DNA from: Chara braunii
Taxonomy: Eukaryota > Plantae > Charophyceae
Assembly: GCA_003427395.1 (NCBI GenBank)
Contig: BFEA01000016.1
Coordinates: forward strand, 4,661,242-4,725,241
Direction: 5' to 3'
DNA: 64,000 nt
Shown: positions 50,121 to 50,843 of the stretch, one piece after another
Layout: every line of letters starts with the position of its first letter
How positions within the stretch are numbered: position 1 is the stretch's first letter
The notes under the pieces: model-generated
Told to the model about the DNA's origin: nothing
Seen by the model: only the letters and a program-made list of their open reading frames with translations
Database searches by the model: none
Translations under genes and position numbers: made by a program

Positions 50121-50843
50121 AGCTAAACCACCCAAACTTATGGAACATGTCTAGCTCAGCCATGGGGTATACACAAACACATGGCACAACTTTTCTCTTC
50201 TTTGAGCATATGACTAGACCACCCTAATCGCCCTGAACTGTTTAAATATCAAAACTTTATACACTTGTCTGCATTTAGTCTTTTGAGGTAACATATAACT
50301 GAACCGATCATCTTCAACTCAAGATTCAGCCTGCCCCTTCGTACCCCAATTTTATTTTAATTAGTACTCTCTTCAGTTGGTGATAAGCTATAGTCAGACC
50401 ACCCAAACTTATGGAACCCTGTCTGACTAGCCTGTTCATAGATAATATAATAATAAAGTATAGTCAAATTATAACCTTCTGGTTCCAGCATGTGCGAGGC
50501 GTTGGACCAAGACCACCCAAACTTATGGAACATGTCTTGGTCCTCAGTCTGGTTTATTTCTCTCAATACCAAAACAGGAAGAGGTTGAGTCACCCAAACT
50601 TATGGAACATGCTCAGACCTCCTCGTTCAGAAACTAAAGAAACTGACAGAAAGCCAAAGTAAACAATGCGACCAAGCCACCCAAACTTATGGAACATGCT
50701 TGGTCCTTGAAAAGTCATTCACATTGAGCCCTCACAAGTCAGAGCAACCAGACCACCCAAACTTATGGAACACGTCTGGTTCTCCAGGCAATTTCAAAAT
50801 AAACATAGCACTGGGCCTTCCCAAACTTATAGAACTTGCCCAG
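50121..50843 (-). repeat. Array of seven hairpins with a near-invariant 20-21 nt loop
   Basis: CACCCAAACTTATGGAACAT (plus) or a close variant at 50129, 50400, 50514, 50591, 50678, 50754, 50817, each enclosed by its own inverted repeat. Confidence 0.93.

Follow-up and report, generated by a model that had tools for sequence, protein, structure and literature searches.

An array of seven hairpins with one conserved loop and interchangeable stems in a Ty3/Gypsy LTR of Chara braunii, a putative protein-binding array

Seven hairpins in a long terminal repeat (LTR) of Chara braunii present nearly the same loop on stems that differ from copy to copy, which raises the question of what kind of element they form, whether it was selected, and on which nucleic acid and strand it would act. 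The window, i.e. the whole stretch of DNA that was analysed, comprises 64,000 nt of contig BFEA01000016.1, and all positions are given within it. An earlier note on the same DNA had placed the array within an LTR and interpreted it as a selected multivalent RNA element.

In the window, Ty3/Gypsy LTRs are nested in one another, and the array occupies nt 512-1234 of one of them, LTR C (46814..51354, minus strand; about 3.6 kb without an insert at 46892-47788). LTR C has TG...CA ends (TGTGG at 51354 and CGACA at 46814, minus strand), and its flanks, CCAT and CCGC, form no matching target-site duplication in this nested and gapped region. The last 500 nt or so at its 3' end are 68-77% like the ends of the sister LTRs; upstream of them only the GCTGCCGAAAT repeats are clearly held in common with the sisters, and three repeats of this type (49524..49774, minus strand) provide a positional anchor. 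The LTR location is corroborated by DNA contig depth, which is 51,000-123,000 over the array and falls from more than 10^4 to about 65 between bins 51311-51467 and 51468 onwards, an edge that fits the TGTGG start at 51354. Judging from this depth, which is no copy number, family C probably has copies of the order of a thousand or more. The 3' part of LTR C also contains an element of about 900 bp (46888-47792) that has terminal inverted repeats and is flanked on either side by TTAA; it spans an assembly gap, and similar ends are found near 56540 and 57720.

A sister full element (12758 to about 22000, minus strand) carries, within 12758-20393, a PBS-like TGGCGCCGTTGCC, which we take to be of the tRNA-Asp/Athila type, a protease and, in last position, an integrase. 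Its reverse transcriptase ORF has no Pfam match, and its Gag, which belongs to a sister subfamily and not to family C, contains a CCHC knuckle. All 35 homologues of the integrase at E <= 1e-30 are Chara braunii proteins, and none of 24 candidates in viral contigs was confirmed. A 17-mer from the LTR end was found at 63 loci in viral contigs, none of them window-like, and these were considered as GC-rich chance matches.

All seven hairpins are described on the minus strand. Hairpin 1 (50121..50156) has a stem of 8-9 bp and a 20-nt loop, hairpin 2 (50391..50429) a 9-bp stem and a 21-nt loop, hairpin 3 (50504..50543) a 10-bp stem, hairpin 4 (50581..50621) a bulged stem, hairpin 5 (50670..50705) an 8-bp stem, hairpin 6 (50746..50781) an 8-bp stem and a single, private loop difference at 50773, and hairpin 7 (50811..50843) a stem of 6-7 bp, a diverged 21-nt loop and an inner stem that forms on the minus strand only, as previously remarked and confirmed by folding. 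The length of 20 nt formerly given to every loop holds for most copies, loops 2 and 7 being of 21 nt; the stems were corrected at copy 1, where an A-C (G-U on the minus strand) is present, and at copy 4, which has a T-G closing pair and a bulge.

The loop is indeed close to invariant. Between 50129 and 50773 there are six matches to the 20-mer at 0-2 mismatches, against an expectation of none over 100 shuffles; the seventh loop starts at 50818 with 4 mismatches, and 15 of the 16 central columns are fixed in all seven copies, the alignment of which confines conserved letters to one loop of 16-20 nt, with none outside it. The loops (20-21 nt) are closed by stems of 6-10 bp that differ between copies and pair as had been written: the first six stem positions are Watson-Crick in 39 of 42 cells, the other three being unpaired. 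When each 5' arm was set against its own 3' arm, the pairing score was 50/56, the highest among 5040 permutations (mean 30), and 642 of 62414 random window positions reach 6 of 8 pairs around a loop of 20-21 nt. Covariation was assessed on the five copies with a 20-nt loop (copies 2 and 7, with an extra base, being omitted). In this ungapped set, 6 of the 8 outer pairs have changed on both sides and 95% of cells pair, a level that none of 500 shuffles reached, which is not a probability since the copies are related paralogues; no slid structure tried on the set came near the observed pairing.

Within the array, 50 of the 68 stem cells that differ between copies retain a Watson-Crick pair. Transition swaps account for 44 of these 50 differences, transitions being the A-U/G-U/G-C route usual for RNA helices. 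For the remaining 6, both arms must have undergone transversions, which rules out independent decay of methylated C as the explanation of the stem swaps. Copies 3, 5 and 6 differ by symmetric indels (direct reading). The six linkers (29-234 nt) had been described as unique, and no similarity was detected in any of the 15 pairwise tests (p 0.13-0.97). A covariance model built from the five copies with a 20-nt loop recovers the other two, hence exactly the seven known copies, and nothing further in the window scores below E 0.38; a candidate eighth copy at 50212-50250 shares only GACTAGACCACCC, does not fold and has no model score. No second array of this type was found in the window, where the 15 other clusters are tandem repeats, hammerheads or low-complexity pairs, nor in four sister U3 stretches. 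Arm-specific pairing, stem changes and unrelated linkers support the former argument that tandem duplication is insufficient, and the array is real, is no simple tandem duplication and was probably selected.

Variation among family copies was read at a few positions. At 50773 the usual loop letter is found in 93 of 104 X20 reads and in 68284/68544 of the X1 depth, and positions 50816 and 50819 are variable in copy 7 (among the 40 variants listed of 1069). In one X1 contig, a loop like that of copy 1 is linked through 28 other letters to an arm like that of copy 5, a hint that the make-up of the array differs among family copies.

Folding was compared between strands. On the minus strand all seven copies fold better than shuffles (z -2.2 to -4.4) and the centroid predicted for 875 nt keeps all seven hairpins; on the plus strand five of the seven copies fold as well, and copies 1 and 7 no better than shuffles. 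The outer stems are predicted on both strands, and strand-specific G-U pairs number four on the minus strand (two of them terminal) against one on the plus strand. Folding models and G-U pairs together lean weakly to the LTR-sense (minus) strand. The unit predicted there consists of a variable closing stem of 6-10 bp (RRRC...GYYY), an asymmetric internal loop, an inner stem of 4-5 bp that is nearly invariant (one informative change), and a UAAGUU hexaloop at the tip. An Rfam search of 47700-54500 gave no family (one chance match, E 1.7), including no hammerhead or retrozyme core (CUGAUGA and GAAA, three-helix junction) on the array, while the same type of search does detect hammerheads in the sister regions. 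The stems, of 6-12 bp, are too short for the 21-nt duplex of a miRNA precursor, and the array has no MIR match. As to the selected multivalent RNA element proposed in the earlier note, signs of selection, the high-copy LTR and the better minus-strand folding agree with it, its action as RNA being putative and its strand a weak lean.

The position of the array relative to the promoter depends on which of three minus-strand TATA candidates is used. The candidate at 51076..51083, probably the one meant previously, is upstream of the array, the one at 50254..50261 is between hairpins 2 and 1, and the one at 50092..50099 is downstream of all seven hairpins; their distances to the GCTGCCGAAAT repeats are 1309, 487 and 325 nt, respectively. 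In three sister LTRs, the TATA precedes these repeats by 286-343 nt. The promoter blocks of the three sisters are mutually alike (3/3 pairs, p 0.003), and none of their 9 comparisons with the LTR C candidates was significant, so that it is by spacing alone that the TATA at 50099 is somewhat favoured. The placement of the array downstream of the TATA is accordingly not established, as sister spacing puts the TATA at 50099 on its downstream side. If that TATA is the one used, then the array would be in U3 and be transcribed only from the 3' LTR. Two further TATA-like sites (51474 and 52163) were dropped because they are outside the high-depth family.

Poly(A) runs X20 and X19 were sampled at about 6% and 12%, respectively. 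X20 gave 6928 reads over 4.7 kb, with a flat profile; 31 of the 6928 are at least 99% alike, nearly all reads coming from other copies, and coverage tracks DNA depth (Spearman 0.67 over 22 of 30 bins, the first and the last seven being dropped). First-mate-minus reads exceed the others about 2 to 1, and would be antisense if the library is of the usual type. In X20, the share of first-mate-plus reads reaches its minimum (0.17) immediately on the downstream side of 51083 and shows no increase beyond 50099; in the poly(A) libraries, activity is thus apparent at neither promoter. X19 gave 317 reads, mostly at 50997-51310, of which 11 diverge at 51099 beside a sense-strand AAG/GTAACC; should this divergence be a splice, it would faintly suggest that first-mate-plus reads are sense and the X20 excess antisense. 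Near the start of LTR C, a possible cassette exon of 141 nt (51101-51242, minus strand; acceptor 51242, donor 51100) was noted, at which the sense-type X19 reads concentrate. No array-specific RNA was found in either library. Another former proposal, that the hairpins are processing sites releasing the linkers, found no support in the two poly(A) libraries, which are a weak test, as no piles of read starts or ends were listed.

RNA modules are present in sister LTRs. LTR B (32573-37289) bears, upstream of its TATA, a sense piece derived from U6 snRNA (33309-33405, plus strand, E 8e-6), together with two type III hammerheads in antisense orientation (33786-33840 and 33924-33978, minus strand, 138 nt apart). 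The U6-derived piece has a counterpart at the equivalent position of the 3' LTR of the full element (11941-12045, minus strand; p 0.003), and in both cases is preceded by a similar hairpin block, the two LTRs having diverged. The hammerheads score just under the gathering score, one with an intact core and a GUU site and the other with a changed GAAA strand, and an antisense acceptor (34258) and donor (33465) lie on either side of the pair. Since only one LTR copy has these hammerheads and a cluster at 61.4-62.0 kb is similar, a nested insertion may be their origin. That cluster (61383-61963, minus strand) consists of three to five hammerhead-like units in repeats of 140-330 nt, 80-86% like those of LTR B, as in a retrozyme-like tandem.

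Other elements of the window were recorded as follows. LTR B, a solo LTR, appears to have inserted into the middle of a palindromic target of 16 bp (32563-32572 and 37290-37299), with a 4-bp duplication carrying one change. A decayed L1-type LINE (37950-42023 and 30464-32500, both plus strand; endonuclease and reverse transcriptase by Pfam, poly(A) at 42497) is apparently split by the LTR B insertion. Two inverted LTR pieces, 3955-6365 (plus) and 7795-10061 (minus), are 91% identical and 1.5 kb apart, and could form a 2.3-kb fold-back. Short GTGGGAGC...GCTCCCAC hairpins (80-157 and 10980-11014), present twice in LTR A and with a counterpart in LTR D, are located in the zone upstream of the TATA.

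The loop was also compared with other sequences. Exact matches were found at 6 loci of metagenome contigs, 1 viral locus and 0 prokaryote genomes, which is about the chance level, and none of these 7 loci has a hairpin array or any other similarity to the window. Its likenesses to the polypurine-tract region of the sister element, to the sister leader at 20247 (6 mismatches, with 4 such matches in the window) and to U6 (UGGAAC only) were all judged due to chance. No paper containing the loop 16-mer (searched in four spellings) or describing the element was found in the literature searched, and a repeat-library entry may exist.

The reading that we tentatively prefer, at a little below an even chance, is a putative selected multivalent array on the sense RNA of the element, bound by a single protein. 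The conserved loop, the co-varying stems, the unrelated linkers and the LTR location, all observed directly, are what it is built on. It is further supported by the RNA modules that sister LTRs keep upstream of their TATA (the U6 piece in two LTRs, hammerheads in one) and by the loop change of copy 6 being absent from most family reads. Counted on both sides is the CCHC knuckle, as the Gag that contains it is from a sister subfamily. Against the binding array count the five copies that fold as well on the plus strand, and poly(A) reads that track DNA depth, come mostly from other copies and show an excess that would be antisense in a library of the usual type; the lack of an Rfam match and the single informative change of the inner stem also count against this reading. 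In such a binding array, the stem would need only to pair and so present the tip, which would be read by its sequence, several sites adding avidity. An invariant tip on arbitrary paired stems and linkers is to be expected when the tip is recognised by a protein in single-stranded nucleic acid. The reader would most likely be the element's own Gag/nucleocapsid or a host export or stability factor. If the TATA is that at 50099, the array would be found only at the 3' end of the full-length genomic RNA. Diverged stems and linkers would cut repeated homology to 16-28 nt, and fewer units would then be lost when reverse transcriptase switches templates, the principle of the engineered non-repetitive MS2 arrays.

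A DNA cis element is an unlikely alternative that nevertheless deserves weight: the seven copies would be sites for a transcription factor or an anti-silencing protein in U3, and their inverted-repeat flanks would serve cruciform extrusion or be kept matched via arm-to-arm template switching. The array ends 22 nt upstream of the TATA favoured by spacing, its outer stems form on both strands, and GAAC(A/T)TGYYY, present in 5 of the 7 copies, could be a double-stranded site; we know of no plant transcription-factor motif that matches the loop. A double-stranded site needs no pairing flanks, yet 39 of 42 stem cells pair and the changes are arm-specific. Plant LTRs such as those of Sireviruses do keep repeated palindromic cis elements in this place (PMC4728375), but the Sirevirus palindromes conserve their arms around a 1-nt centre, which is the reverse pattern.

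It is less probable still that the hairpins act on antisense RNA, within an intron of an antisense LTR transcript, by recruiting a nuclease or splicing factor that removes this RNA. A candidate intron (50024..50899, plus strand) brackets the whole array, with a consensus donor (AAAG/GTAAGT, one of 6 AGGTAAGT on both window strands) and an acceptor with 20/20 pyrimidines and CAG (one of two such acceptors), both within 100 nt of the array. The antisense hammerheads of LTR B could do the same job, antisense-type reads dominate X20 if the library is of the usual type, and antisense ORFs are common in Retand elements (PMC11963269). Set against this, the 50024-50899 joint is not among the 15 listed of 537 joints, no RNA dip is seen over the array, plus-strand folding of copies 1 and 7 does not surpass that of shuffles, and the intron bracket was noticed post hoc.

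That the loops are decoys soaking up a host miRNA or siRNA is quite improbable. Loop length equals small-RNA length, there are seven copies and the stems are indifferent, but in the predictions for both strands the loop folds inward, it matches no Rfam miRNA family, its 16-mer is absent from the searched literature, and a good complement is absent elsewhere in the window, where the best duplexes are scattered chance matches.

Very improbable is a new class of self-cleaving or nuclease-cut motif replacing the hammerheads of the sister LTRs, which are carried in a comparable zone. A fixed core with exchangeable helices is the way in which ribozymes vary, but all conserved letters of the array are in one loop of 16-20 nt, known self-cleaving classes need more conserved sequence than one such loop, and the two poly(A) libraries show no piles of read ends. 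Equally hard to sustain is a neutral origin through duplication, template switching and methylation decay. The 44 transitions among 50 stem swaps speak for it, as does the readiness with which LTRs gain and lose repeats (PMC4728375). Against it, the loops stay near-identical while the linkers lose all similarity, single-arm breaks are rare (3/42), and crossing over in shared loops would give mismatched arms, of which there are none; decay acting on each arm separately would disrupt pairs much more often than restore them, and templated repair from one arm to the other, though able to match arms, would not keep the loop as linkers diverge.

Maize Sirevirus LTRs have a palindrome-rich cis region of family-specific sequence in their upstream half, before the TATA (PMC4728375), and thus resemble LTR C, the upstream half of which likewise bears a repeated unit that can form hairpins. 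Sireviruses are Copia elements, whereas the Chara element is Gypsy by the gene order of the sister element; and the Sirevirus unit is a GC-rich palindrome, CACCGGACtGTCCGGTG, with conserved arms and a 1-nt centre (PMC4728375), whereas the array has a conserved 20-nt centre and exchanged arms. With the TATA favoured by spacing, the array would be in the position of the Sirevirus palindromes, and it inverts their pattern. The Sirevirus palindrome region is also a hotspot of siRNAs. The METTL16 nonamer is UACAGARAA, and direct reading finds it on neither strand of the loop. The closest working analogy is the MAT2A 3'-UTR, where six or seven dispersed hairpins share one loop and are bound by one protein, METTL16 (PMC10578476), these hairpins being in a host mRNA and the array in a transposon. 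MBSV5, an engineered non-repetitive MS2 array whose design prevented repeat loss in lentiviral delivery, likewise combines fixed recognition features with varied stems and random linkers (PMC4403262); it is synthetic, and recognition by MS2 requires a 4-nt loop together with a bulged A, whereas the Chara array is natural and its ligand presumed. Retrozymes, Cassandra, Helenus and Ajax are LTRs with an RNA module (PMC4918200, PMC10886601), as are the sister LTRs of the window, and the U6-bearing ones recall Cassandra (5S) and Helenus (tRNA); these elements are short and non-autonomous with one known RNA, in contrast to a 3.6-kb LTR with seven unclassified motifs. By analogy, the array would work, if anything, like the MAT2A hairpins or MBSV5 while belonging to neither, and it is probably a new form of LTR cis-element array.

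A broader proposal, possible but doubtful, is that the upstream half of Chara Gypsy LTRs is a bay for exchangeable RNA modules (U6 piece, hammerheads, array), and that the family C array is a natural non-repetitive operator, in which seven copies of a new RNA motif, each on an interchangeable stem, would be protected from deletion by reverse transcriptase and would bind one protein or cut RNA, controlling packaging or silencing. Little mapping has been done of the cis-acting RNA signals by which LTR retrotransposons of plants and algae achieve packaging, export or evasion of silencing, and the array offers a compact candidate motif of 16-20 nt whose tolerated variation has been sampled seven times. 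Given the high copy number of the family, a genome-wide alignment together with a pull-down could define both the motif and its reader. If such an RNA-protein pair were found, it would be a natural counterpart of the recombination-proof MS2 arrays and possibly an orthogonal RNA tag.
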